This document shows positions 8,223 through 40,330 of a DNA stretch of 54,162 nt, piece by piece (within the stretch, counting starts at the first letter, position 1; each line of letters starts with the position of its first letter). The notes below the pieces were generated by a model that was given only the letters and a program-made list of their open reading frames with translations, made no database searches and was not told the origin of the DNA. Source of the DNA: an uncultured Gammaproteobacteria bacterium (GTDB lineage: Bacteria; Patescibacteriota; Patescibacteriia; Magasanikbacterales; GWA2-37-8); the NCBI GenBank assembly GCA_964561035.1, contig CAZLNR010000003.1:3558-57719 (forward strand). The letters are read 5' to 3'. A program made the translations under genes and the position numbers.

Positions 8223-11200
8223 TTATTGTTTAAACCCAGTACCGGCTGGAATAAGTCTACCGATAATGACGTTTTCTTTAAGACCATCCAAGTAGTCAAT
8301 TTTACCAGTAATAGAAGTATTGATAAGCACCTTGGCTGTTTCCTGGAAGGAAGCTGCAGACAAGAAGCTTTGTGTGGAAAGAGAAACTTTGGAAATACCC
8401 AAGAACATTTCTCTGCCAACTGCTGATTTTCCACCATCTTTTTTAGCTTGACGATTGGAAAATTCTAATTGGGATTTTTCTACTACTTCACCAGGCAACA
8501 AATCGGTATCACCGGCATCTTCAATGTATACACGGCTAAACATTTGGCGAATGATGAGCTCTACGTGTTTATCGTTAACTTTCTGACCTTGAGAAGAGTA
8601 GATGTTCTGTACTTCTTGCAAGATATATCGCTGAACAGATTCTCTGCCCTTTAATTCAAACAATTGATGTGGGTTAATGCTGCCGTCGGTAAGAATATCA
8701 CCTTTCTCCACCTTGTCTCCAGTCTTAACCAAAATCTTATAGCCCATTGGAACGATATATTCTCGTACATGCGGACCTTCATAGGCTAAAGTGATGGTGT
8801 TTCGTTCAATTTTTACTGTACTTGGATATTTAGCAAGCACTTCTTCACCAGAAGCACCTCGCACTAATATCACCTGGTCTTTTTGTATAGAATCACCGTC
8901 TTTAACCATGATTTCATCTTCTGATTTGGTTTTAATTTTAATTTCATCCATGCCAGAGAAATGAATATGGATAATTTCTTGACCGCGGCGGCCTTCAAAA
9001 ATCTTTTTACCGCTTGGAGAAGTGATGATCTTTCCGTCTGCCTTTTCAATTTCAATTTCACCGCTCACTTCAGCGAGCATTGCCTGCTTCTTTGGAGTGC
9101 GAGCTTCAAATAATTCGTCTACACGAGGCAAACCTTGTGTAATATCGCCACCACCCGCCACACCACCAGTATGGAAGGTTCTCATGGTAAGCTGTGTACC
9201 CGGCTCACCAATGGATTGTGCAGCAATAATACCTACGGCCACGCCAAATTCTACCGGCTTGTTCTTTGACAAGTCAAAGCCATAACATTTGCGGCACACG
9301 CCTTTTTGCATATTACATTGCAAAATACTGCGTACCTTTACTGATTCTATTTTGTTTTCATCAATAGCGCGAGCAGCTTTATCATCAATCGCTTCACCTT
9401 CTTTTACCAGTACTTTATTACCGGCTTTAACAGTTTCTAGTACATATCTGCCCCAAACGCGATCTGACAATTTTTCACCCATTTCTTTTGATTGAGCAAC
9501 GGTAAAGAGTTCGCCGTTTGTATCGCCACAGTCTTCTTCAAACACAATTACATCTTGAGACACATCTACCAAACGACGAGTCAAATAACCAGCGTTCGCG
9601 GTACGAAGCGCGGTATCGGTCAAACCTTTTCTGGTACCGTGTGAAGAGATAAAGAATTCCAATACTTCAAAACCTTCTTTAAAGTTGCCTTTAACCGGCA
9701 ACTCAATGGTATCACCTGAAGGTGAAGCCACTAAACCTTTCATACCGATAACCTGACCAAGCTGACCCCAACTACCACGAGCACCAGAATCAATCATCGC
9801 GAATACTGGGCCGTCTTTGCGTAAAGTTTGTTGGTTCTTAGCAACAATCTTTTCTTTGGTTGCCGCCCAAATTTCCAAAATTTTGGCATGGCGTTCAGAT
9901 TGAGTAAGTAAACCTTCTTGATATTGCTCTTCTACCAACGCAACCACTTTGTCTGCTTCTTCCAACATTCCTGGTTTTTCCGAAATGGCTGGGAAATCAT
10001 CCATGCCTAATGAATAGCCGGATTTGGTTACATATCTATAACCAAGATTTTTCAATTCATCCAAGAAGAACGCAACCTCTTGCTGATCGCTTAACAATTC
10101 CAAGCACAAACGAATCACATGACCGAGTTTTTTCACAGTAATGGTTTCGTTAAAGTATGGGAGCTGTGGAGGTAAGATTTTATTGAACAAAATTCTACCG
10201 ACTGAAGTTTCCATAATAGGATTTGTTCCTTCAGGAAAACGGCTCACATCTTGGAAACGAACCTTGATGCGTTCTTGCAGTGTAATAACACGAGAACGAT
10301 AGGCCAAAATACTTTCTTGTTCAGAACTAAAATATTTCTTTACTTCTGCCACATCATCAGATTCGTAACGAGTCAAATAATAACATCCGAGTGCGATATC
10401 CTGTTTTGGCGTGATGACCGGACTGCCAGTAGCTGGTTTTAAGATATTTTTTTCTGCGGCCATTAAGTTGTCTGCTTCCCAACGAGCTTCAACTGTAAGC
10501 GGCAAGTGTACGGCCATCTGGTCACCATCGAAGTCGGCGTTAAACGCAGTACATACCAACGGATGCAACTGGATAGCTTTACCTTCAATCAAACGAGGGT
10601 GGAAAGCCTGAATACCAAGACGGTGCAAGGTTGGAGCGCGGTTTAAGAGCACGCGAGTCTTCTTTGTTAAATCTTCCAAAATGTCCCATACTTCATCGTG
10701 TTCGGCTTCAATATATTTGGAAGCGCTACGAACATTGTGAGCAAGCTCTCGCTTAATCACTTCACTCATGATAAACGGTTTAAAGAGTTCCAAAGCCATG
10801 CGTTTTGGCAAACCACATTCATCAATGTTTAAGTTTGGACCAACTACGATTACGGAACGGCCAGAGTAGTCCACACGCTTACCAAGCAAGTTCTGACGGA
10901 AACGACCCTGTTTACCTTTCAAAATATCTGCTAATGAGCGCAATTGTCTCTTTTGGCCTGTAGAGGCGGTTACAGTTTTTGCTTGTCTGGCGTTATTATC
11001 AACCAGCGCATCAACCGCTTCTTGCAACATGCGTTTTTCATTGCGGCAAATAACTTCCGGCGCATCCAACTCTAATAATCTGCGCAAACGATTATTGCGG
11101 TTAATTACACGGCGATATAAGTCATTAAGATCAGAAGTAGCAAAGCGGCCGCCATCAAGAGCAACCATTGGACGCAAATCTGGAGGAATAACTGGAATAG

Positions 11201-21316: not shown

Positions 21317-21389
21317 GGGCCCTTAGCTCATTTGGTAGAGCACCGCGTTTGCAACGCGGGGGTGATCGGTTCGAGCCCGATAGGGTCCA
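21317..21389 (+). tRNA. tRNA-Cys (GCA)
   Basis: Manual cloverleaf: acceptor GGGCCCT/AGGGTCC, anticodon loop TTGCAAA, T-arm ATCGG-TTCGAGC-CCGAT. No CCA is encoded. Confidence 0.9.
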
Positions 21390-21395
21390 CAATTT

Positions 21396-21470
21396 GCCGC
21401 GGTAGCTCAGTGGTAGAGCGCAGCCCTGAAGAGGCTGGCGTCGTCAGTTCAATTCTGACCCGCGGCACCA
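21396..21470 (+). tRNA. tRNA-Phe (GAA), with CCA encoded
   Basis: Acceptor GCCGCGG/CCGCGGC, anticodon loop CTGAAGA, T-arm GTCAG-TTCAATT-CTGAC, then ACCA. Confidence 0.92.
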
Positions 21471-21486
21471 AGGTTGTACAAAATAA

Positions 21487-21560
21487 CGGGGTATGGCTCA
21501 ATTGGCTAGAGCACCTGGTTTGGGACCAGGGGATTGTGGGTTCAAGTCCCACTACCCCGA
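21487..21560 (+). tRNA. tRNA-Pro (TGG)
   Basis: Acceptor CGGGGTA/TACCCCG, anticodon loop TTTGGGA, T-arm GTGGG-TTCAAGT-CCCAC. Its last 3 nt belong to the island core site. Confidence 0.92.
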
Positions 21561-23069
21561 CAACACGGAACATCTATAATTTTTAAAGGAATTAACATTT
21601 TGGTCGGTCAAACGTACGGCCACGTTTTTGGCGTAACCACCAACAATTTTAAAACCCCCCACCCACAACCACGACATTTTTCTTCCCCCGAGGCGGCGGT
21701 TCGTTCCGTGCTCTGCCACAAATGATTTTATTTCATAAAAATCATTCGACACCGCCAATTTTTCCGCATGGTGAGCGGCTTTCCAGAATTCACGCATGGG
21801 TTCGATCCACAAAACCCCTTTTCTTCTCAAAGCAGACCTTTTTTGATGAAGGTCTGCTTTTGTTTTAATCAATTCCTCTTTTTTTAAGAGGTAGATTGAT
21901 TTTTCTATAGTATTATCTAAATAGGAATCAACCAGTTTATTTAACCTCTGCTCTATTTCTTGGGTTTTGGTTTCAAGGCTTTGGGAAAAAGAAATATTGT
22001 CATTTTTTAATTCTTTTTCCCATTTCTCTATCTGAGCAAGCCCTTGGCTATACCAGTCATCAGAAATGGCAACAGCTTTGATTTCTGCTTTAATCTGTTC
22101 CGCAAGTTTGTTTTCTTGAAGATATTTTTGTGAGCACGGGCCTAATCTTTTTGTGCAACGATAATAACGGTAAGTTCCACCGTGGCCATGGGCAAATTGG
22201 GCAGTGATGGCCGCGCCGCATTCTTGGCAAGAAAAAAGGCCGCAAAAAGGAAAATCATGACTATCTTTTTTCTTGCGAGGGCGGGATTTGCTTTTGAGTA
22301 TTTTTTGTACGGTTTCAAATGTCTTACTATCCACCAGAGCAGGAAATTTGCCCTCGTAGGCTTCTCCGTTGTGTTGAATAATGCCAAGGTAGGCTTTGTT
22401 GGTCAGAAGCCGAAAAATTCCTGCTTTCACTAGGGGCTTGCCTACACTACTCGCCACGCCCCAAAAACTTAGGCGTTCGGAAAGGCTTCGCAGAGTATGG
22501 TTATGAGTAGCAAATTCTTGAAAGGCTTTAGCTACTATTCTGGCTTTGAGCGGGTCAGGTTCAATATTTCTTGTTTTTGGATTGTTAATATATCCAAATG
22601 GGGCTTTGGTAGGCCATTCGCCGCGCCTAAGTTTTTGGCGAACGCCACGCTTTACATTTTCGCTTAGATTGTCGGAATAATATTTTGATTGCCCAAAGGC
22701 TACTTGGAGCATGAAAAGTCCTTGCGGGGTTGGCTCAAACCAAAAAGTGGGAAAGCGCAAAGAAACTATTTTTTCTATGTCTATACTATATATAATCTGC
22801 CCTCCGTCTATGCTGTTTCTAGCAAGTCTATCCGGATGCCAGGCAAGCAGACCTACAGGCTCTTTGCTCTTTTGTACTTCGTTCATCATTTCATTAAAGA
22901 CTTCTCGGCCGGGTTTCTTTGCGCTTTTACTTTCTATAAAGGTTTGAGCAATCAAAATATTTTCTCTTTTTGCAAACTCAGACAGTTCGGCCAGCTGGGC
23001 TTCTATGCTCATGACCTGCCTTTCTTCATCCTCGGTGCTTTTGCGGACATAGAGAAAATATTTTGTCAT
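21552..23069 (-). CDS. Large serine recombinase (phage-integrase type): resolvase catalytic domain, recombinase domain, zinc beta-ribbon, coiled coil.
   Basis: MTKYFLYVRKSTEDEERQ..SIEAQ...HPDRLARN (catalytic Ser/Arg motifs); GEWPTKAPFGY; CGLFSCQECGA...YYRC zinc ribbon. The start is taken at ATG 23069 because the track's 23180 start adds a non-homologous leader. The 3' ~150 nt lie inside repeat A and the ORF ends inside tRNA-Pro. Confidence 0.88.
   Translation of the reverse strand: MTKYFLYVRKSTEDEERQVMSIEAQLAELSEFAKRENILIAQTFIESKSAKKPGREVFNEMMNEVQKSKEPVGLLAWHPDRLARNSIDGGQIIYSIDIEKIVSLRFPTFWFEPTPQGLFMLQVAFGQSKYYSDNLSENVKRGVRQKLRRGEWPTKAPFGYINNPKTRNIEPDPLKARIVAKAFQEFATHNHTLRSLSERLSFWGVASSVGKPLVKAGIFRLLTNKAYLGIIQHNGEAYEGKFPALVDSKTFETVQKILKSKSRPRKKKDSHDFPFCGLFSCQECGAAITAQFAHGHGGTYRYYRCTKRLGPCSQKYLQENKLAEQIKAEIKAVAISDDWYSQGLAQIEKWEKELKNDNISFSQSLETKTQEIEQRLNKLVDSYLDNTIEKSIYLLKKEELIKTKADLHQKRSALRRKGVLWIEPMREFWKAAHHAEKLAVSNDFYEIKSFVAEHGTNRRLGGRKMSWLWVGGFKIVGGYAKNVAVRLTDQNVNSFKNYRCSVLSG
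21558..21704. repeat. Inverted repeat arm A (147 bp), the perfect reverse complement of 23179..23325. Similarity resumes at 21708-21719 after an indel.
   Basis: Manual base-by-base comparison found no mismatch. The arm starts with the core site. Confidence 0.9.
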
Positions 23070-23113
23070 ACTCCTTAGGTTAAATGTAAAGCGTGGCGTA
23101 AAATTGGCTGTGT

Positions 23114-23132
23114 GTTCCGACTTAATCGGAAC
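23114..23132. promoter_or_regulatory. 19-bp palindrome GTTCCGA-cttaa-TCGGAAC, 45-63 nt upstream of the recombinase ATG. It is a candidate operator or accessory site.
   Basis: Direct reading. It shares the CGGAAC/GTTCCG string with the core site. Confidence 0.4.
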
Positions 23133-23178
23133 GTGGCAGAGCATGGCAACACTTTGGTGTTGGGGCGCCTCTGCGCCC

Positions 23179-23325
23179 ACGAACCGCCGCCTCGGGGGAA
23201 GAAAAATGTCGTGGTTGTGGGTGGGGGGTTTTAAAATTGTTGGTGGTTACGCCAAAAACGTGGCCGTACGTTTGACCGACCAAAATGTTAATTCCTTTAA
23301 AAATTATAGATGTTCCGTGTTGTCG
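23179..23325. repeat. Inverted repeat arm A' (147 bp), ending in the internal inverted core site C2 (23307-23325)
   Basis: Perfect reverse complement of 21558..21704. It is preceded (23133-23178) by a copy of the recombinase 3' end plus a 31-nt insertion containing two hairpins. Confidence 0.9.
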
Positions 23326-23544
23326 AAAATCCTGAACGACGTACGAATGTATTTTGAAACGATTTATTAGCTAGGGGGCTAATGTGTAGGGGCTTTGCCC
23401 CTACAACCCCACAAAATTTCGGCGGGCAAAAAGGAAGGGGTTAGGGGAAGGAATTTTTGCCCGCTGGTGGCGACGATTTCGGAAACCCTACCATTTGTTC
23501 GCCGAAGGGGTGTTGTTTCGTGCACGTTTCACGTGCGCGCCGCC
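23307..23544. repeat. Inverted repeat arm B (~214 bp near-identical, plus a ~24-nt diverged extension). It looks G+C-richer than the flanks and is hairpin-dense. Its partner is 32210..32449.
   Basis: Manual alignment to the reverse complement of 32235..32449 gives identity except for 3 substitutions and a ~30-nt variable patch (23392-23420). The extension keeps a hairpin with a different stem sequence. Confidence 0.88.
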
Positions 23545-23550
23545 ACACAA

Positions 23551-26500: not shown

Positions 26501-26562
26501 TTTTCTGCGGTGTTTGTTTTCATATTATTTTTTTTCAAATATTTCACGTTGGGCTGGTTCAA
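23551..26562 (-). CDS. hsdR: Type I restriction enzyme R subunit (HsdR)
   Basis: N-terminal nuclease region; SF2 motor motifs GSGKSNTIAW (motif I), VIIDEAHSSQ (DEAH, motif II) and TATP (motif III); ~1000 aa. The likely start is MKTNT at 26523, 1 nt after the orf311 stop. Confidence 0.93.
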   Translation of the reverse strand: MNQPNVKYLKKNNMKTNTAEKGFEDFIEGYLVKNNGFLERKPDVYDKALCFDAELVLEFIKKSQEKEWQKLVDQHGADVEQRFLTRLDEEIQARGVLDVLRSGLSDHGSRFDLAYFKPETSLNEEVKKQFESNILSVMRQVKYSDKNENSIDMVIFLNGLPIFTIELKNQLTGQSVKNAIQQYRTDRDPKEKLLSFKRCLVHFAVDTELVYMTTKLAGLATYFLPFNKGNNNSAGNPVNADGYKTSYVWEDIWTVESALEIISRFVHLEKIEKTDAKGHKYFAETLIFPRFHQLDTVRRLVRDARENGAGKSYLIQHSAGSGKSNTIAWAAHHLSELHNTKDKKVFDSVIVITDRRVLDRQLRNTIMQFAQTAGVVKPIVEGSKELKEALEAGEKIIITTLQKFPVIVENMDAIPGKKFAVIIDEAHSSQSGESTKSLKQVLNASSNTDEDVVLTEAENEEEAFEVETTEDMVLKEMKSRRAKTNNISFFAFTATPKQKTLEIFGQRSVSDGKFYPFSLYSMKQAIEEKFILDTLKNYTTFQVYFSLLKKAEDDPEFKKKKAQMLLISYVERHEHAINKKVEIMVDHFINNIEKQINGNAKAMIVTKSRLHAVRYKMAVDAYLKRHSYPFKAMVAFSGTVKDGGLEYTEGQMNGVPEKNTAEEFKKDEYKFLIVAEKFQTGFDQPLLTVMYVDKKLGGVNAVQTLSRLNRTCPNKEEVFVLDFVNDADDIKESFQPYYTTTILSEATDPNILHDLERDILNFKMFSEDEIEHFVTDYFAGAKPSVLNSFLDGVAVRFKQYLSEEQEDFRSKLQDYIRKYAFIAQIITFEATSLEKLYVFVRFLIRKLPVIKERLPFEVLESVDMESYKISKTSETKIELENIDGVIEPIDGRGRSEQEEEKELLSKIIKDVNEKFGTNFSGDDRIILNNLSKRLLENEGVEGAVRNNTREAAKIKFDAVFQDELIGMVNNHFDLYKKLDSNRDLKDYVKHRIFDFVHRKLKVR

Positions 26563-27460
26563 TATCTAAAATTATTAATTTTGGTTTTTGATATAAAGAA
26601 GTCCGTAGTATCTCAGCAGTTATAGTAACTAAACTTGTTTTATAAAATCCTCTATAATCTTCGGTGCCTTTACCATCAGACGGAAGCGCAATTAAGTCAC
26701 GGTGCTTTGGGTCAACGTCCTCTAATCTAAATCGCATTGTATCACCCCTTGAAGCCTGCAAAGCAATTATAGAACCCCTCAATTCCATAATTGCACCATT
26801 ATACATGTCTGGAAGTATCTTCTGGTCATCACCGAGATAATCTCCAAAATTTTCCTGCGTAATTTCAACTGGCTCTAAAAAATCTGGTTTATCACTAAAC
26901 TTCACACTACTCATATCAGTTTCCGCTTCAATAAATGGTTTGAGGATTTTCTTAAATTTATTTCTTTTGACAATTCTATGTAAACGTTTGGTCGGCTCGA
27001 CAGGCATCGGCCTTTCGTTATACGTAGTTTGAATCTTATTTTTCTGATATTTGGCAAAACCAAGACACATAAGTAAATATGATCCAAGTCCGTAGGCAAC
27101 TGCCTTTGCAATATCATAATCAACGGGGTTCTTACCTGCAAAATCATTTAAACTTCTGCGATACTCTAAAAATTTAGCCAGGGCTTCGCCGCCTATCATC
27201 TGGAAAAACTCCAGCGCATGTTGTCCGTGCAAAAATAAATCAGCTGTAGCAACAATCAAAACTTGATTATCGATAATTATCGACCCTTCGCGCGCTCTTA
27301 TTGCCTTAACTTTTACATTACCTTTAATCAGGGCAACACCTCCAATTAATTGGCGTAAAAGTTCCTCAAAACCAATTAACGATTCACCTAAAACTGACAG
27401 GTCTACAGGAGAACTATTTGTCGGTGTGTATTTTATATAAAACTTTGCTTCACATTCCAT
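26525..27460 (-). CDS. Hypothetical protein (orf311) embedded between hsdS and hsdR, with no recognisable domain
   Basis: 311-aa ORF with codon style like its neighbours. TAA-T-ATG junctions at both ends (hsdS stop 27464-27462 / ATG 27460; its own stop 26527-25 / hsdR ATG 26523) indicate translational coupling. Confidence 0.75.
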   Translation of the reverse strand: MECEAKFYIKYTPTNSSPVDLSVLGESLIGFEELLRQLIGGVALIKGNVKVKAIRAREGSIIIDNQVLIVATADLFLHGQHALEFFQMIGGEALAKFLEYRRSLNDFAGKNPVDYDIAKAVAYGLGSYLLMCLGFAKYQKNKIQTTYNERPMPVEPTKRLHRIVKRNKFKKILKPFIEAETDMSSVKFSDKPDFLEPVEITQENFGDYLGDDQKILPDMYNGAIMELRGSIIALQASRGDTMRFRLEDVDPKHRDLIALPSDGKGTEDYRGFYKTSLVTITAEILRTSLYQKPKLIILDIEPAQREIFEKK

Positions 27461-27461
27461 A

Positions 27462-28805
27462 TTATACTTTTACCTTCCCAGTAACCACATTATAGATTAG
27501 GGACGATTTATATTCTTGTAGTAATTCTATTGATTTTTGAATTTTCTCACTACATTCATCAATTTTAGCAATTTTTTCATCCAAAAACTTCGCAATTTTT
27601 TCTTGTTCTTCAATTTTTGGAATAGTAGAAATTATATTTTTTAAATCATCTATTGTTAGCTGGTTAATAGTTGATGTAGCTGATGACCTAAGCTGAAAGA
27701 AAAATAGTTCCGACTTAAAAAAGTATGCCATATATCTCCAGTAACTACTTCTAAAAATAGACATAAACACTCCGAAAGTATTACCTTCGCCAGGCCCATT
27801 AATAACGGCGCTTTTACCAATTAACGCAGCGCTTCCATTTCGTGAGCATATTAAGATGTCCCCTTTTTTTGTTTTTAGATTCTTGGGTATTGATTTTTTA
27901 ACATAAATATTATCATTTAATTCAATAGTATTATTTTGAATGTTTGAAGAGCGAAGAACCAGTGTGCCTTCAGCTTCATCGGTAACATCCTCCGGACTAT
28001 AGGTCAAGCCAATAATGGCCTGACCAACAAATTTTAATTTCTCCACCCTCCACCCCTTCGGCACTTTCCCAATCCATCCCACTCCACTATCTACCAGTGT
28101 TGCATCTTCACCCAATCCACGTGTTACAGCCCGGTTAATCACCGCTGCACGCTTCTCCTTTAACAACTCAACCAGCTTTTGTTTTTGCTCAATGCTTTTA
28201 TGAATACTTGCAGTTTTAGCATCTAGATAATCGGCAATTTTTTTCTGAATTTCACGAGAAGGATTAACAAAGTATTCTGAAAAATAATTATATAAATCTA
28301 AATTTTGTATACCTGTGGTTTGTTTGATCGATCTAACGTTTAACCGCGTTGAATATGCGGCGGATAAAAAATAAATAAAATATCTCGGCTCAACCTCCTC
28401 TTTAACATCAATCACCTCAATAAAATTGGCACACACCATCTTTTCTACAGAATTAAACAAAATTGCCCTACCTACAGGTTGTTTTTCTCCACCACCTGAT
28501 TTTTCAAGTAAAATATTTCCCTTTTTTAACAGCTTCCTTCTTTGATCATCTTTGGAAACATTCCGAACTGTTTCAATTTCTCCGAATCCAAAATTTTCAT
28601 AATTAAAATCAGCAACCCTGAGGCACATTACATCATTAACATCAGCCTTAGGATCTTCACCCCATATACCAGAAAAATGATGTTTAATAAATTTTTTTGG
28701 TTGTATCACCTTCCAGTTCTTTGGAACCATTCCAATCCAGTCAACTCCAGAATCTTGATAATCTGGATATTTTTGAATTTGTTTTTTTAATTCTATTTTT
28801 TGCAT
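27462..28805 (-). CDS. hsdS: Type I restriction-modification specificity subunit (HsdS) with two target-recognition domains
   Basis: Two variable halves separated by the conserved helix KQKLVELLKEKRAAVINRAVTRGL, ending in the conserved SIELLQEYKSSLIYNVVTGKVKV. Confidence 0.9.
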   Translation of the reverse strand: MQKIELKKQIQKYPDYQDSGVDWIGMVPKNWKVIQPKKFIKHHFSGIWGEDPKADVNDVMCLRVADFNYENFGFGEIETVRNVSKDDQRRKLLKKGNILLEKSGGGEKQPVGRAILFNSVEKMVCANFIEVIDVKEEVEPRYFIYFLSAAYSTRLNVRSIKQTTGIQNLDLYNYFSEYFVNPSREIQKKIADYLDAKTASIHKSIEQKQKLVELLKEKRAAVINRAVTRGLGEDATLVDSGVGWIGKVPKGWRVEKLKFVGQAIIGLTYSPEDVTDEAEGTLVLRSSNIQNNTIELNDNIYVKKSIPKNLKTKKGDILICSRNGSAALIGKSAVINGPGEGNTFGVFMSIFRSSYWRYMAYFFKSELFFFQLRSSATSTINQLTIDDLKNIISTIPKIEEQEKIAKFLDEKIAKIDECSEKIQKSIELLQEYKSSLIYNVVTGKVKV

Positions 28806-28811
28806 ACAAAA

Positions 28812-30875
28812 TTATAGCTTTTTTAACATCTCCAATAATTCATTCTCCACCCCTTCAATCTCACCTTCAATCTCTGTCAATTCTCGTGGTGGAATATATT
28901 TGTAAAAATACCGAGTAAATGGGATTTCATAACCTACCTTACCCACCTCGTTATCCTTATGGTCGCGCACGGTTTCATTTATCCAAGCATCTGGCGCAAA
29001 TGGTTTTACTTCCTTTTCAAAATATTTGTAAACATCCATACCCCATGGCACATTCTCGCTGTCGCGGAGCTCGCTATCCGGTTCTGGCTTGCGTTCACTA
29101 TCCATACACACATCTGCAGTCTCATCGCGCTCGCTTAACTCCTGCAAAATAGTTTTAAGTATTGGAGCTGGAACTTTTATTTTGACTTGCTTAAATTTAT
29201 TTTCAAGCAACCCCAAAAACTCTTCGCGATTTTTATATAGTTTATCGCCAATACTATCTAATACTTTATAAATCTCAGCGCGTAGATTTTGCCATTCTTT
29301 ATTTTCTGTTTCACCTGCCGTGCCTTTCTTTTTACTTGGAACATCATTTTTCATTTTTTCCGTTTCTTTTAATATTGCCAACCGCTCTACATTGGCTTGA
29401 AAATTTAATTTTAATGGTCGTTCGATGATAATCTGACGAAAAGCAAAATCAGTGGTATTAAAAATTTTGCAATATTCATTTTCTGTAAATGAATTATATA
29501 ACTCCAAAATCTTAGCCCGATTTTCATCGGATATTACATGGCGTTTATTGCCAAGCGACTTACGCATTTTTTCAAAAAATATTCTGGCATCAATGAGCTG
29601 TACCTTATTTTGTCTTTTCTTTTCTTTACGATTGCTCAAAAACCATACATACGTATTAATACCGGTGTTGTAAAACAGTTGATCTGGCATCGCCACAACC
29701 GCATCTAGCCAATCATGCTCTAGTATCCAACGACGAATTTCGCTTTCTCCGCTGCCAGCGTCGCCCGTAAACAGCGGCGAACCATTAAATACAATAGCCA
29801 AACGCGAACCACCATCAATCGGGTTACGCATTTTAGAAATAAGATGCTGTAAGAATAAAAATTGCCCATCGGAAATTCTAGGCAAACCAGCGCCAAACCG
29901 GCCGGCAAAACCGCGCTCGGCTTCTTTTTCTACCGCCTCTTTGTCTTTTTTCCAATCCACGCCGAATGGAGGATTTGTCAGACAATAATCGAACTGCTCA
30001 CCAATAAATTGATCATTGGTAAGTGTACTGGCTTTGGAATGGTCCTTATCTCCACCTTTGATTTTATCCGGATCATCGCCTTTAATAAGCATGTCGGATT
30101 TGCAGATAGCGTATGTAACCGGATTCAATTCTTGCCCATACAAATATATGTCAGCATCTTTATTGATAACAGACAAAATATGCTCTTTGCTTGTCGTTAA
30201 CATTCCCCCTGTACCACTAGCGCAATCATAAATTGTTTTAATGATATGTTTTTTGTTTAGCAATTCTTTGTCAGGCGCGAACAAAATTTCCACCATCGTT
30301 TTGATAACTTCGCGTGGGGTGTAGTGCTCACCGGCAGTCTCGTTTGATTGCTCATTAAATTTACGGATTAATTCTTCAAAGATAGAACCCATTTCATGAT
30401 TACTGGTGACGCGCGGATGTAAATCAATTTTGTTAAATTCTTTTAAAATCAGATATAATAAATTTCCACCTTCCAAACGGGATAATTGTTTTCCAAAATC
30501 AAACTTGGCAAAAATTTCTTTAATATTGTCGCTAAATCCATCAATAAAATGCTGTAAATTTTTGGCAATATTTTTTGGATCTTCCAGTAGTTTGGCAAAA
30601 TCATACGGCGAGGTATTGTAAAAACCTACCTTGCTAGCCGATTTAAGAATTGGATCAAGCTCTACTTTGCCATGAAACCTGTTATACTGCTCCAACACTG
30701 CCGGTTTAGTATCGGCCAACACGGAATCCAACCGCCTCAAAACAACGAGTGGTAAAACAACATCCTGATATTCGTACTGTTTCCAGCCACCACGTAAAAG
30801 CTCTGCGATTTGCCAGATAATACCAGCTTTGGAATTGAAGTTATTCATATGTATATTATTTTGAATTACCGTCAA
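28812..30875 (-). CDS. hsdM: Type I restriction-modification N6-adenine DNA methyltransferase subunit (HsdM), long form
   Basis: AdoMet motif [10 protein letters not shown], catalytic NPPFG ([10 protein letters not shown]) and an HsdM N-terminal helical domain. An ATG at 30848 is an alternative to the track's start at 30875. Confidence 0.93.
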
Positions 30876-32037
30876 TAAATAAATCTAAATACTCTTTGAG
30901 AAAAAAAATGCGGTTGCGAGAAAAACCAGTTTTTTCAATAAAAAGACCAAGTCGCTCAAATTCATTGGCCAGCGTAGTAGCAGTTTGAATACTAGCATTC
31001 ATCAATTCTTTAATGTCTTTAACTGTAACACCCGGCTGAGAAAACAATTGTATTAACAGTTCTTTTCCGGCCTTCTGACGCTTAATACCCATGCCAGATT
31101 CAATTGTACTTTCATACCGTTTGCGCAAAGCAATAATTTTTTCAAATGTTTCTTTGCCTGTTTTTGCAGTTTGGCTAATACCAGTGAGAAAAAAACGAAT
31201 CCAATGCTCTATGTCGCCTGTCTGTCTAACCATAGACAAAGCATCGTAATATTTAGTTCGATTTTTCTCAAAGAAATCAGATATATATAAAGTTGGTTTT
31301 TTGAGAATACCTAAATCAACCAGCTGAAGAGTAATTATCAGACGGCCAATACGACCATTACCATCAAGAAATGGATGGATAGTTTCAAATTGGTAATGTG
31401 AAATAGCGGCTTTAATTAAATCTGGGATTTCCAAATTTTTATTGTGCCAAAACTTTTCCAAATCTCCAAGCAGCTCTGGAACATCTGTATGGTGCGGGGG
31501 AATAAAAACAGCATCGGCAAGAGTAGCTCCACCAAGCCAATTTTGACTGTGACGAATTTCTCCTGGCTGTTTACTATAACCACGAACACCAGAAAGCAAT
31601 ATTTTATGAGAATCTTTTACTAATCGAATTGATAATGGCAATTGTTCCAATTTTTTAACTGAATAATTGATAGCTTGAATATAGTTATCAATTTCTTCCC
31701 AGTCATTACGTTTTTCTGGCGCCAACTCTTCGCTTGATAACACAGCTTCATCTAAATTAGTTTTTGTACCCTCAATACGACTGGACTGTGTGGCTTCTTT
31801 GGCCACATGCATACGGATAAAAAAATCTACATCTGGCACAAGAGTAGAATATGCGTTAAGTTCCCCTAAATAACGCATAGCATCTGAAAGTAGCAAGTTA
31901 ATGCGTTTATCTTCCCAATCGAAAGGTTTATTTATGGGCGTTGGCACAAAACTTTTATAACTATTTTGCTGGCGATATGTACCTGCGATGAATTTTGATT
32001 TTGACATAGTAATTAGATTAAGATAATCTATATTCAA
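30856..32037 (-). CDS. fic: Fic family protein (AMPylase-type) with an N-terminal autoinhibitory-helix motif and a C-terminal wHTH
   Basis: Fic motif [12 protein letters not shown]. The inhibitory [S/T]xxxE[G/N] motif is present as SSRIEG upstream of the core. The true start is probably ATG 32007, because the track start at 32037 is TTG at the predicted transcription start. Confidence 0.9.
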
Positions 32038-32066
32038 AGAATATCACTTAACTTGGAATTTGTCAA
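32038..32066 (-). promoter_or_regulatory. Candidate operon promoter for fic-hsdM-hsdS-orf311-hsdR: TTGACA, 17-nt spacer, TATTCT
   Basis: The reverse complement reads TTGACA-aattccaagttaagtga-TATTCT. It lies inside the segment bracketed by the B repeats. Confidence 0.45.
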
Positions 32067-32209
32067 GACATATTACACACAGTTTACCCCAGTATACATA
32101 ATTTGGCTCATTTTAACGGATCTTGGGAGCCTGCCATAACCCAACGCGCACGCACGGGTGGGCAGGAGCAAGCGCGTTTCTAGCAAATAACACCATAATC
32201 AATCGGTCG

Positions 32210-32449
32210 GGCGGCGCATTCGCCAAAGCGAATACGAAACAACACCCCTTCGGCGAACAAATGGTAGGGTTTCCGAAATCGTCGCCACCAGCGGGCAAAA
32301 ATTCCTTCCCCTAACCCCTTCCTTTTTGCCCGCCGAGATTGTACTGGGTTATAGGGGGCAGAGCCCCTACACATTAGCCCCCTATCTAATAAATCGTTTC
32401 AAAATACATTCGTACGTCGTTCAGGATTTTCGACAATTCGGAACATCTA
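32210..32449. repeat. Inverted repeat arm B', the partner of 23307..23544, ending in the distal core site C3 (32431-32449)
   Basis: See arm B. ATTCGC-caaa-GCGAAT at 32218-32233 replaces the GCACGT-ttc-ACGTGC hairpin of the other copy. Confidence 0.88.
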
Positions 32450-32478
32450 AAAACATTCTTACAACAAAGAATGTTTTT
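32449..32478. terminator. Strong hairpin terminator (AAAAACATTCTT-acaaca-AAGAATGTTTTT) abutting the island's right end
   Basis: 12-bp stem including the A/T runs; bidirectional form. No upstream plus-strand gene is present unless the island is removed, in which case it would follow tRNA-Pro. Confidence 0.75.
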
Positions 32479-39066: not shown

Positions 39067-39408
39067 TTATATTTCTGCTAACAGCCGCACCTGCTCCACA
39101 TCGGCTGCAATTTGTTTTTTTAAATCATCTTCATTATCAAATTTTTTCATTTCACGCATTTTTTCTCCCAACTCTACATCCAATTGTTTTCCATATAAAT
39201 CACCGGCAAAATCCAAAACATGTATTTCAAACAAATTTCCGCCCGGATAAATAAACACTGCGCCCGCATGCTTTTTCCCATTGAGCACTGTGGTTGCCCA
39301 ATAAATTCCCCCATCAATTTGCTCCGAAATTATTATATTGGCTGTAGGAAACCCAAGCTCTCTGCCTTTCTGTTTTCCTTTAACCACTACACCGGTTATA
39401 TGTTTCAT
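39067..39408 (-). CDS. Stand-alone riboflavin kinase domain protein (equivalent to the RibF C-terminal domain)
   Basis: GVVVKGKQKGRELGFPTANI...HVLDFAGDLYGK. There is no FAD-synthetase half. Confidence 0.8.
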   Translation of the reverse strand: MKHITGVVVKGKQKGRELGFPTANIIISEQIDGGIYWATTVLNGKKHAGAVFIYPGGNLFEIHVLDFAGDLYGKQLDVELGEKMREMKKFDNEDDLKKQIAADVEQVRLLAEI

Positions 39409-39409
39409 A

Positions 39410-40330
39410 TTATTTTGCCAAACGCTTCAACGCCGGAAATAAATCCTGTAATTTTTTTACCAGCGCGCACCGCCAATCGCAATATGCTTCTTTATTTTTA
39501 TTTAAACATTTTTCACAACAGATAAAATGATCGTGGCAGTTTGGCTGCTGGCAATTAACATAATGCTCGCTTGGCTGGTGGCATTTTTTACACCGACCGA
39601 CCATTTCCGCCTTAGTCTTATCGCTATTAAAGCCCATAGTTACTCGGCCGTCAAACACATATAACTTTCCCAAAAAATCTTCATTTGGATATTTCTCCAT
39701 ATACGTAACAATGCCGTTATGAAGTTGGTACACATCATTAAAACCATGTTTTACCAAAAAACCTGATGCCTTTTCACACCGTACGCCTCCCGTGCAAACT
39801 GTAACCACTGTTTTATTTTTTAAATGCTCCAAAGTTGGCAATAAGGCTGGCAAATCACGAAAGTTTTTAAGCGGAGGCAAAATAGAATTTTTAAAAAAAC
39901 CAACTGAGTGCTCATAATCATTGCGCATGTCTACAATATAAAATTCTTTGTCACTATGAATCCAGCTATGAAGATCTTCTGCGGATAAATATTTCCCTGT
40001 CATTTCATTAGGGTTAACATCATCCACCCCCAAATGCGCGCTCACAATCTCTGACCTGCATTTTACTGAGAGTTTTGGGAAAGCATGACCAGTGCCATCG
40101 CTGCGCTTAAAATTCATATCAGCAAATCGGGGATCTTTTATCATCTCATCCAGATATTTTTGTGTATTTTCTCGCAAACCTTCTACCGTACCGTTTAAAC
40201 CTTCGGCTGCTACGATGATCCGCCCTTTCAACCCTAAGCGCTCGCACAACTCTTTTTGTGCCTGTGTAAAAGCTTCCGGATCGGAGATGGAGGTGTATTT
40301 ATAATATAGTAAGATTTCGTATTGAGACAT
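39410..40330 (-). CDS. trhO: Rhodanese-domain tRNA uridine(34) hydroxylase TrhO (UPF0176/YceA family)
   Basis: ILLYYKY N-terminus, rhodanese active-site CTGGVRCE and a C-terminal Cys-rich tail. Confidence 0.85.
   Translation of the reverse strand: MSQYEILLYYKYTSISDPEAFTQAQKELCERLGLKGRIIVAAEGLNGTVEGLRENTQKYLDEMIKDPRFADMNFKRSDGTGHAFPKLSVKCRSEIVSAHLGVDDVNPNEMTGKYLSAEDLHSWIHSDKEFYIVDMRNDYEHSVGFFKNSILPPLKNFRDLPALLPTLEHLKNKTVVTVCTGGVRCEKASGFLVKHGFNDVYQLHNGIVTYMEKYPNEDFLGKLYVFDGRVTMGFNSDKTKAEMVGRCKKCHQPSEHYVNCQQPNCHDHFICCEKCLNKNKEAYCDWRCALVKKLQDLFPALKRLAK

Follow-up and report, generated by a model that had tools for sequence, protein, structure and literature searches.

The window analyzed here is a 54,162-nucleotide stretch of contig CAZLNR010000003.1 (assembly GCA_964561035.1), and it carries a Type I restriction-modification operon with an additional gene, orf311, set between the genes for the specificity and restriction subunits. 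On the minus strand the operon runs in the order SoFic, hsdM, hsdS, orf311, hsdR (Table 1). The initial annotation, made from the sequence alone, had described orf311 as a 311-amino-acid (aa) open reading frame (ORF) between hsdS and hsdR, and its coordinates, its strand, and the identities of its neighbors all hold. The gene is a member of an undescribed family that has no defined model in Pfam, NCBIfam, or PADLOC. In what follows, homologous loci carry L numbers and family proteins carry P numbers.

Both junctions of orf311 read TAA-T-ATG, exactly as first stated. The hsdS stop codon (27464-27462) precedes the orf311 ATG at 27460, and the orf311 stop codon (26527-26525) precedes the hsdR ATG at 26523, a start preferred over an upstream TTG because a 990-aa homologue aligns end to end, its residues 1-990 falling on 26523-23554. 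The idea that two identical junctions amount to a special signal was rejected. The heptamer TAATATG is a habit of this genome (20 copies versus 12 expected), so that finding it at both ends of orf311 carries no particular meaning. The junctions indicate translational coupling and nothing more specific. The earlier statement that orf311 must be expressed stoichiometrically with the restriction subunits reads too much into such coupling. The same TAA-T-ATG arrangement, at 39406-39412 on the minus strand, also links two unrelated minus-strand ORFs (39410-40330 and 39067-39408).

The promoter-like site ahead of the Fic gene fits a single transcription unit, from which orf311 would be coexpressed with HsdS and HsdR. 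By homology (alignment to the HsdM of L001), the true start of hsdM is probably at 30848. With SoFic at its head, the operon already stacks a second defense-type gene.

The orf311 Family and Its Predicted Fold

A word-indexed search returned just three relatives of orf311, at 98%, 57%, and 51% identity. An exhaustive profile search of 1.84 billion representatives gave 117 family clusters at E<=1e-3, 62 of them at E<=1e-30, mostly 300-330 aa long. Between orf311 and the 98%-identical copy in L004, nonsynonymous divergence (dN) is 0.0126 and synonymous divergence (dS) is 0.255, a dN/dS of 0.049. Because it has homologues, this low ratio, and a confident predicted fold, orf311 is more than a chance ORF; it is a genuine gene under purifying selection. 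Where family members have a public name at all, it is "hypothetical protein," as with MBU1613561.1 from a Patescibacteria bacterium. One candidate member, P0114, was discarded as a false positive, a eukaryotic SEA/EGF protein.

The initial description of an unrecognisable protein is borne out. Scanned directly against Pfam, NCBIfam, PHROGs, and PADLOC, orf311 produced no match that reached threshold; Pfam, PADLOC, and PDB sequences had none at all, and NCBIfam and PHROGs had only sub-threshold N-terminal ones. Searches of PDB sequences with profiles of 4 and of 68 sequences returned only noise. When orf311 and the family consensus were compared by tblastn with 72,556 plasmids and 50,697 phage genomes, no relatives were found, and scans of IMG/VR contigs likewise turned up no member of the family.

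With four sequences, AlphaFold 2 modeled only the C-terminal third of the protein, leaving the N-domain at a predicted local distance difference test score (pLDDT) of 51. With the 68-sequence alignment A2, on which the conservation counts given here also rest, the mean pLDDT reached 92.2 and the predicted template modeling score (pTM) 0.87. The model has an N-terminal alpha/beta and helical domain followed by a C-terminal domain with the features of an oligonucleotide/oligosaccharide-binding (OB) fold: a predicted five-stranded barrel (residues 224-235, 241-246, 255-259, 278-285, and 294-302) with a helix (266-272) between strands 3 and 4, all at pLDDT above 90. In Foldseek searches of the PDB with two independent models, every significant match was a nucleic-acid-binding OB fold. 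These included the ExoVII large subunit; the anticodon-binding domains of LysRS, AspRS, and AsnRS; RPA; SSB/Rim1; the RecG wedge; and IF1, with target-normalized template modeling (TM) scores of up to 0.66 (SSB/Rim1). The N-domain was covered by no PDB match. In the viral library BFVD, Foldseek aligned almost the entire protein with three uncharacterized proteins of phages (E 4e-8 to 4e-6). The C-terminal OB fold had escaped inspection by eye.

Only P175, R286, and P293 are invariant across the 68 members, with S27, S60, F76, K140, L209, L216, P217, P260, and Y290 nearly so. Two motifs stand out in the OB domain. The first has the family form LQ(S/A)xRG(D/E), in which R or K occupies position 238 in 55 of 68 members, G239 is present in 59 (six more have Trp, an artifact discussed below), and D or E occupies position 240 in 65 of 68. 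The second, RxSxY(K/Q)(K/R)PK (aa 286-294), has R286 and P293 in all 68 members, S288 in 61, Y290 in 63 with Phe in the other five, and K or R at position 292 in 65. The conserved R238, D/E240, R286, Y290, and K292 all fall in the loops between strands 1 and 2 and between strands 4 and 5 of the predicted barrel. The inter-strand loop side of OB folds is their usual ligand-binding face.

Signs of catalysis are missing. No conserved constellation of acidic residues and histidines, no Walker motif, and no nuclease motif runs through the 68 members, and no library scan of orf311 or of family members detected an enzymatic domain. Two features that had been noted by eye did not survive the alignment. 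The PD...DxK-like string was weighed as a PD-(D/E)xK nuclease and rejected: position 218 is Glu in 30 members, Asp in 18, Gln in 7, Asn in 5, and His in 3, positions 250-252 vary, and the string falls across two loops, one ahead of OB strand 1 and the other joining strands 2 and 3, which does not resemble a nuclease core. The hydrophobic stretch at aa 120-135, a possible hint of a membrane helix, is not conserved. An integral membrane effector was rejected, as P0002 and P0003, both close relatives, lack 4 and 8 of these 16 residues; in the compact model the stretch sits within a packed helix (113-139) of the N-domain.

Two further observations concern particular members of the family. Those at L021 (4023-4994), L025 (8001-8993), and L048 (7377-8306) contain 13-19 in-frame TGA codons at 22-28% GC, and nine public proteins (P0013, P0031, P0057, P0065, P0066, P0070, P0073, P0078, and P0083) have Trp in otherwise conserved Gly columns. 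In the TGA-rich hosts UGA seems to be read as Gly (code 25), and its rendering as Trp in public protein sets looks like a mistranslation. One subgroup (L042, 2040-3440; L043, 6822-8168; and P0020) carries a C-terminal extension of ~140 aa with the motif ...NPIPVFIKRHVNGWEYVGDY..., which has only a weak DUF6697 match and no PDB match and is found beside Type III and Type IIG genes. No informative domain fusion other than this extension was seen in the family.

Genomic Neighborhoods and the Mosaic Operon

The surroundings of orf311 homologues (orfX) were surveyed at about 30 independent loci. The genome and metagenome scans covered the YKKPK subclade (alignment A4), and their samples lean toward it. 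The neighborhoods of homologues, which the initial annotation had proposed as a check, include restriction genes in about 18 of about 30 independent contexts: 11 are Type I, 2 Type III, 3 Type IIG, and 2 Type IV-like. Three further loci have other partners, and about nine have no recognized defense gene nearby. These observations support a strong tie of the orfX family to restriction loci. They do not bear out a specific link to Type I enzymes, as orfX genes also accompany Type IIG, III, and IV enzymes or reverse transcriptases, and some stand alone.

OrfX lies within a Type I operon, or directly beside one, in the window and in L001/2, L003, L004-6, L007-10, L011/12, L016/17, L018-20, L027, L035, and L032. 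In most of these loci orfX comes directly after hsdS, and the HsdR partners represent at least three families (T1R_D3/DUF5646; T1RH-like_C; and EcoEI_R_C with DUF4145). The Type III loci are L013, with the order Res-orfX-RNase H, and L043, where an EcoP15I-like Mod (5e-39) and a 1044-aa ORF lie upstream of orfX; the Type IIG loci are L021, L042, and L048. Among the Type IV-like loci, a gene with ScoMcrA_N and HNH domains overlaps the orfX start in L023, and Mrr lies directly downstream of orfX in L030. The other partners are a reverse transcriptase near an integrase in L025, DUF6119 with IrrE in L031, and a group II intron reverse transcriptase at a contig end in L028, from the cultured Geobacter hydrogenophilus DSM 13691. 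In L028 the family member (10001-10924) has the intron reverse transcriptase upstream and an overlapping 262-aa ORF downstream.

Members of a distant clade have further enzymes downstream. An AbiP2-type reverse transcriptase (PADLOC about 1e-156) has a start that overlaps the orfX stop in L011 (8924-10513) and L016 (2348-3946). A 100-aa ORF follows the reverse transcriptase in L011/L012 and L017. In L007, of the same clade, a 224-aa ORF and then the PDC-S53 superfamily 1 (SF1) helicase come after orfX. Among 29 neighboring ORFs no conserved unknown partner gene was found beside orfX, and the family is without a fixed partner.

Comparison of related operons indicates that orfX has a history of its own. 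Between the window and L001, amino-acid identity is 85% for the SoFic protein that heads the operon, 92% for HsdM, and 93% for HsdR, and only 57% for orfX; nucleotide identity falls to 0.57-0.68 exactly across orfX, where dS is saturated. The comparison with L004 gives the reverse pattern, with a dS of 0.26 for orfX and about 1.0-1.1 for the flanking genes. From these opposite patterns it follows that the orfX allele has been exchanged among related operons independently of its neighbors, in a way that looks much like the exchange of hsdS target-recognition domains. An obligate Type I subunit was considered and rejected, given the existence of other partners and a history discordant with the flanking hsd genes.

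The hsdM-hsdS junction forms a second variable slot, which is empty in the window (28806-28811). It holds a 116-aa ORF in L001 (8292-8642), DUF2130 in L004 (1803-2987), RhuM/Fic and a KAP NTPase in L007 (1905-4219), and DUF3800, a 137-aa ORF, and DUF6119 in L011 (3469-6353). A PDDEXK_1 gene follows hsdR in L001 (13901-14656) and L003 (5351-6100) and is absent from the window, where about 370 bp of noncoding DNA (23181-23550) lie between hsdR and a serine recombinase gene.

The initial annotation also held that the gene travels on a mobile island, and this is plausible, though not proven. A large serine recombinase gene abuts a tRNA cluster ending in tRNA-Pro; a direct repeat (CGACAAnnCGGAACATCTAnA, 19/22 identical) brackets the recombinase and the operon; GC content is slightly lower across the operon; and in L001 the same operon adjoins a ribosomal-protein cluster, that is, a different genomic site. 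Taken together, these features make an island of about 10.9 kb plausible. Just inside one putative end lies a GC-rich stretch of about 320 bp (32100-32420) without a long ORF, between the Fic promoter region and a DsbA-like gene, for which no Rfam match reached the gathering score.

Table 1 Coordinates of orf311, its operon, and the putative island in the window
Feature	Position	Strand	Basis
orf311, 311 aa, ATG start	26525..27460	minus	ORF call and translation
hsdS stop/orf311 start junction, TAA-T-ATG	27458..27464	minus	Read from sequence
orf311 stop/hsdR start junction, TAA-T-ATG	26521..26527	minus	Read from sequence
Predicted N-terminal alpha/beta and helical domain, aa 1 to about 180	26921..27460	minus	AlphaFold 2 secondary structure
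Predicted C-terminal OB-fold domain, aa about 205-303	26552..26848	minus	AlphaFold 2 and Foldseek
Motif LQASRGD, aa 234-240	26741..26761	minus	End of predicted OB strand 1 and loop to strand 2
Motif RTSLYQKPKL, aa 286-295	26576..26605	minus	Loop between predicted OB strands 4 and 5
hsdR, Type I restriction subunit, 990 aa	23551..26523	minus	Pfam HSDR_N, ResIII, SWI2_SNF2, T1R_D3-like; PADLOC REase_I
hsdS, Type I specificity subunit	27462..28805	minus	Pfam Methylase_S; PADLOC Specificity_I 1.6e-100
hsdM, Type I methyltransferase	28812..30875	minus	PADLOC MTase_I 3e-268
SoFic-type Fic gene, operon head	30856..32037	minus	PADLOC SoFic 2.1e-115; Pfam Fic_N and Fic
Best promoter-like site, directly upstream of the Fic gene	32038..32066	minus	TTGACA-17-TATTCT with TG; consensus scan only
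Large serine recombinase, downstream of hsdR	21552..23180	minus	Pfam Resolvase, Recombinase, Zn_ribbon_recom
tRNA-Ala/Phe/Pro cluster, abuts recombinase gene	21317..21561	plus	ARAGORN and Rfam
Direct repeat copy 1 (CGACAACACGGAACATCTATAA), 3' end of tRNA-Pro, putative island end	21558..21579	plus	19/22 versus copy 2
Direct repeat copy 2, beyond the Fic promoter, putative other island end	32431..32452	plus	19/22 versus copy 1

Possible Roles Beside Restriction Enzymes

The evidence excludes a PrrC-type enzyme as well as an obligate Type I subunit. What it points to is a non-enzymatic, portable module that has the ligand face of an OB fold as its conserved surface. The function we favor, tentatively and with some way to go before it would be called likely, is that of a mobile sensor or adaptor that binds single-stranded nucleic acid and supplies restriction with an additional layer. 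We infer nucleic-acid binding, a role in defense, and interplay with the restriction-modification enzyme. Orf311 would be a two-domain, non-enzymatic protein that joins an N-domain without a match among solved structures to a C-terminal OB fold. The module inserts preferentially just after hsdS in Type I operons and is also found beside Type IIG, III, and IV genes, and in some lineages it is translationally coupled to makers or processors of single strands (the AbiP2-type reverse transcriptase, the SF1 helicase, and RNase H). The OB face formed by the LQxxRG(D/E) and RxSxY(K/Q)KPK loops would bind single-stranded nucleic acid, either single-stranded DNA (ssDNA) or RNA/tRNA, and the bound protein would act as a second layer on the restriction of double-stranded DNA. 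Either the protein itself would occupy such intermediates, or it would link them to the neighboring enzyme. The enzymes beside which the module is recruited cut, translocate on, unwind, or synthesize nucleic acids. The earlier suggestion of a novel restriction-associated effector, sensor, or regulator keeps its association with restriction and its independence from PrrC; it loses the PrrC-like toxin and the specificity for Type I. If the sensor or adaptor function is correct, the family would constitute a new portable accessory layer of restriction and would give the first hint of Abi-P2 polymerases working with a partner.

Several points weigh against this assignment. The OB domain is not basic overall, with an isoelectric point of 5.0 in the window protein and a family median of 6.1, and OB folds are also able to bind proteins or sugars. 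The N-domain, with its near-invariant S27, S60, and K140, may hold an unrecognized activity. About 9 of about 30 contexts have no recognizable defense gene in view (L028, L029, L033, L034, L036, L041, L044, L045, and L050), where L036, L041, L044/L046, and L045 were judged by BLAST against our own gene panel only, with one PDB look-up for L041. Restriction operons are known as insertion hot spots, and adjacency alone is therefore no proof of functional coupling.

A broader version of the sensor would make orfX a general companion of restriction, with the OB fold passing a single-stranded signal to an adjacent nuclease, translocase, or protein-primed reverse transcriptase. The signal may be incoming ssDNA, replication or recombination intermediates, or tRNA. 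We consider this extension rather unlikely, but if true, the protein would be a shared, exchangeable trigger or targeting module for Type I, IIG, III, and IV enzymes and Abi-P2 polymerases.

Of the alternatives, the one that survives best has orfX as a self-contained single-gene defense of the abortive-infection type that hitchhikes in the hsdS-hsdR hot spot without any link to the restriction enzyme; its OB domain would sense a phage cue, and its N-domain would be an effector of unknown type. This is possible, if somewhat unlikely. It would account for the loci where orfX is alone or has unrelated neighbors (L018, L029, L033, L036, L044, and L050), the want of a fixed partner, and the exchange of alleles independently of the flanking hsd genes, and it draws on the N-domain's weak similarity to the single-gene candidate PDC-S42 and on the presence of other autonomous defense genes in these operons (SoFic, the KAP NTPase, DUF6119, and AbiP2). 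Against it, neither a toxic or enzymatic domain, a conserved membrane helix, nor a catalytic constellation was found, and so tight a translational link to downstream enzymes of very different kinds points to cooperation over mere co-location.

A regulator of restriction is improbable. In this scenario orfX would be, for example, an establishment or restriction-alleviation factor that delays or tempers the nuclease when the mobile operon arrives in a new, unmethylated host. Its position next to a nuclease gene, immediately upstream in many loci (of hsdR in the window and of Mrr in L030) and elsewhere downstream (of HNH or Res), is in keeping with such a role, as are the mobile, mosaic operon and a non-enzymatic protein, like many regulators. 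Yet the order relative to the nuclease gene varies, the Type IV Mrr and HNH partners have no methylase to wait for, and other partners are reverse transcriptases. Nor does the protein contain a DNA-binding helix-turn-helix or resemble known controller proteins.

A latent effector on the PrrC model, silenced by the assembled Type I enzyme and freed by a phage anti-restriction factor, is very doubtful. The slot between hsdS and hsdR is the same as that of prrC, orf311 is translationally coupled to both neighbors, and the LysRS anticodon-binding domain among the OB matches would fit tRNA recognition. Against this stand the lack of an NTPase or anticodon-nuclease domain, with no match to a PADLOC, Pfam, or NCBIfam model, and the lack of conserved catalytic residues. 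The family's occurrence beyond Type I loci makes a latent toxin masked specifically by the Type I complex unlikely; with three HsdR families, Type IIG, III, and IV enzymes, reverse transcriptases, and solo copies among its settings, no single Type I complex is needed.

Least probable is a non-defense function of the mobile element, such as an SSB-like replication or transfer protein or an anti-defense factor carried by chance of island architecture, which would suit L023 (in an element with PrimPol, ParB, and ArdC), L025 (near an integrase), and the structural relatives in phage proteomes, but which sits poorly with the empty plasmid, phage-genome, and IMG/VR searches, the embedding in operons for restriction and not in modules for replication or transfer, and the lack of an SSB Pfam signature.

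Comparison with Known Systems

The position of prrC is exactly between hsdS and hsdR, and PrrC is one of the guardians already known from the embedded genes of Type I operons. Like PrrC and RloC, orf311 is an accessory rather than a core component and occupies the hsdS-hsdR interval of a Type I operon. Unlike them, it lacks both an ABC-type NTPase domain and a nuclease domain, resembles them in neither sequence nor profile, and belongs to a family that is not confined to Type I loci. For an ABC/Rad50-type NTPase there was no Pfam, NCBIfam, or PADLOC match (orf311 at E<=10, the 68 members at E<=0.1) and no conserved G-x-x-G-K-[ST] column. For an anticodon nuclease, the C-terminal part is instead a predicted OB fold, and no His or Glu is invariant among the 68 members. 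The initial annotation was thus right to call the protein unrelated in sequence to PrrC, and past position the analogy is not supported. The prrC gene itself is embedded in the Type IC EcoprrI locus (PMC12707154).

The C-terminal 100 aa, a predicted barrel, resemble the OB domains of SSB and RPA, the N-domain of the ExoVII large subunit, the anticodon domain of class IIb synthetases, and the RecG wedge. As in nucleic-acid-binding OB folds, conserved aromatic and basic residues are placed by the model in the inter-strand loops. Unlike them, orf311 has no Pfam SSB or tRNA_anti match, and its OB domain is acidic overall and fused to a 180-aa N-domain that matches no solved structure. As for a bacterial SSB, there is no Pfam match, and the C terminus, ...EPAQREIFEKK, is not an acidic tip.

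Weak likeness of the N-terminal part to four uncharacterized families, PDC-S42 (itself just a defense candidate), DUF7946, LAPAL_fam, and phrog_9226, falls below the curated cut-off wherever one exists and does not cover the OB domain. The window protein scores 17.3 bits against LAPAL_fam, versus a 60-bit cut-off (0.0024), and matches phrog_9226 at E 1.6e-4, mostly over its first 30-100 aa. PDC-S42 (PDLC05015) is matched by only 3 of 68 members at <=0.1 and not by the window protein; the distant members P0128 (6e-6, over the N-terminal 73 aa) and P0121 (1e-4, profile positions 4-201 of 302 on aa 2-212) reach it. Against Pfam DUF7946, 18 of the 68 members align, and only to positions 1-33 of the 183-position profile (best E 6.9e-6); members scanned singly reach 13-19 bits against a gathering threshold of 27 bits, and the window protein has no match. 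Literature searches found no papers on DUF7946 or PDC-S42 and nothing relevant on embedded OB-fold genes in Type I operons.

The Abi-P2/AbiK enzymes make long ssDNA, a natural OB-fold ligand, and Abi-P2 has been described as a single-gene system. Inside Type I operons, distant orfX members show translational coupling to an AbiP2-type reverse transcriptase, and from the gene overlap we infer that the two may be functionally paired. The window operon differs in having no reverse transcriptase; such enzymes are present only at the distant L011, L016, and L025.

The three phage proteins A0A8S5QA00 (DUF6575), A0A8S5T657, and Q6NE06 of Leptospira phage LE1 align in fold with orf311 over nearly the full length, which suggests, from the models, that they share its two-domain architecture, but their global TM-scores are low (0.21-0.37). 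The phage link is a lead only, as no member of the orf311 family matches the DUF6575 profile. DUF6575 occurs in one experimentally selected E. coli defense system (PMC9519451).

At the level of sequence, orf311 shares the defining features of none of these known families. It represents a new family within a known theme, the accessory genes that lodge in restriction loci. Uncharacterized genes are common in Type I operons, but a tie to all four restriction classes and to AbiP2-type reverse transcriptases is unusual, and the orf311 family would be a good candidate for a new accessory layer of anti-phage defense.

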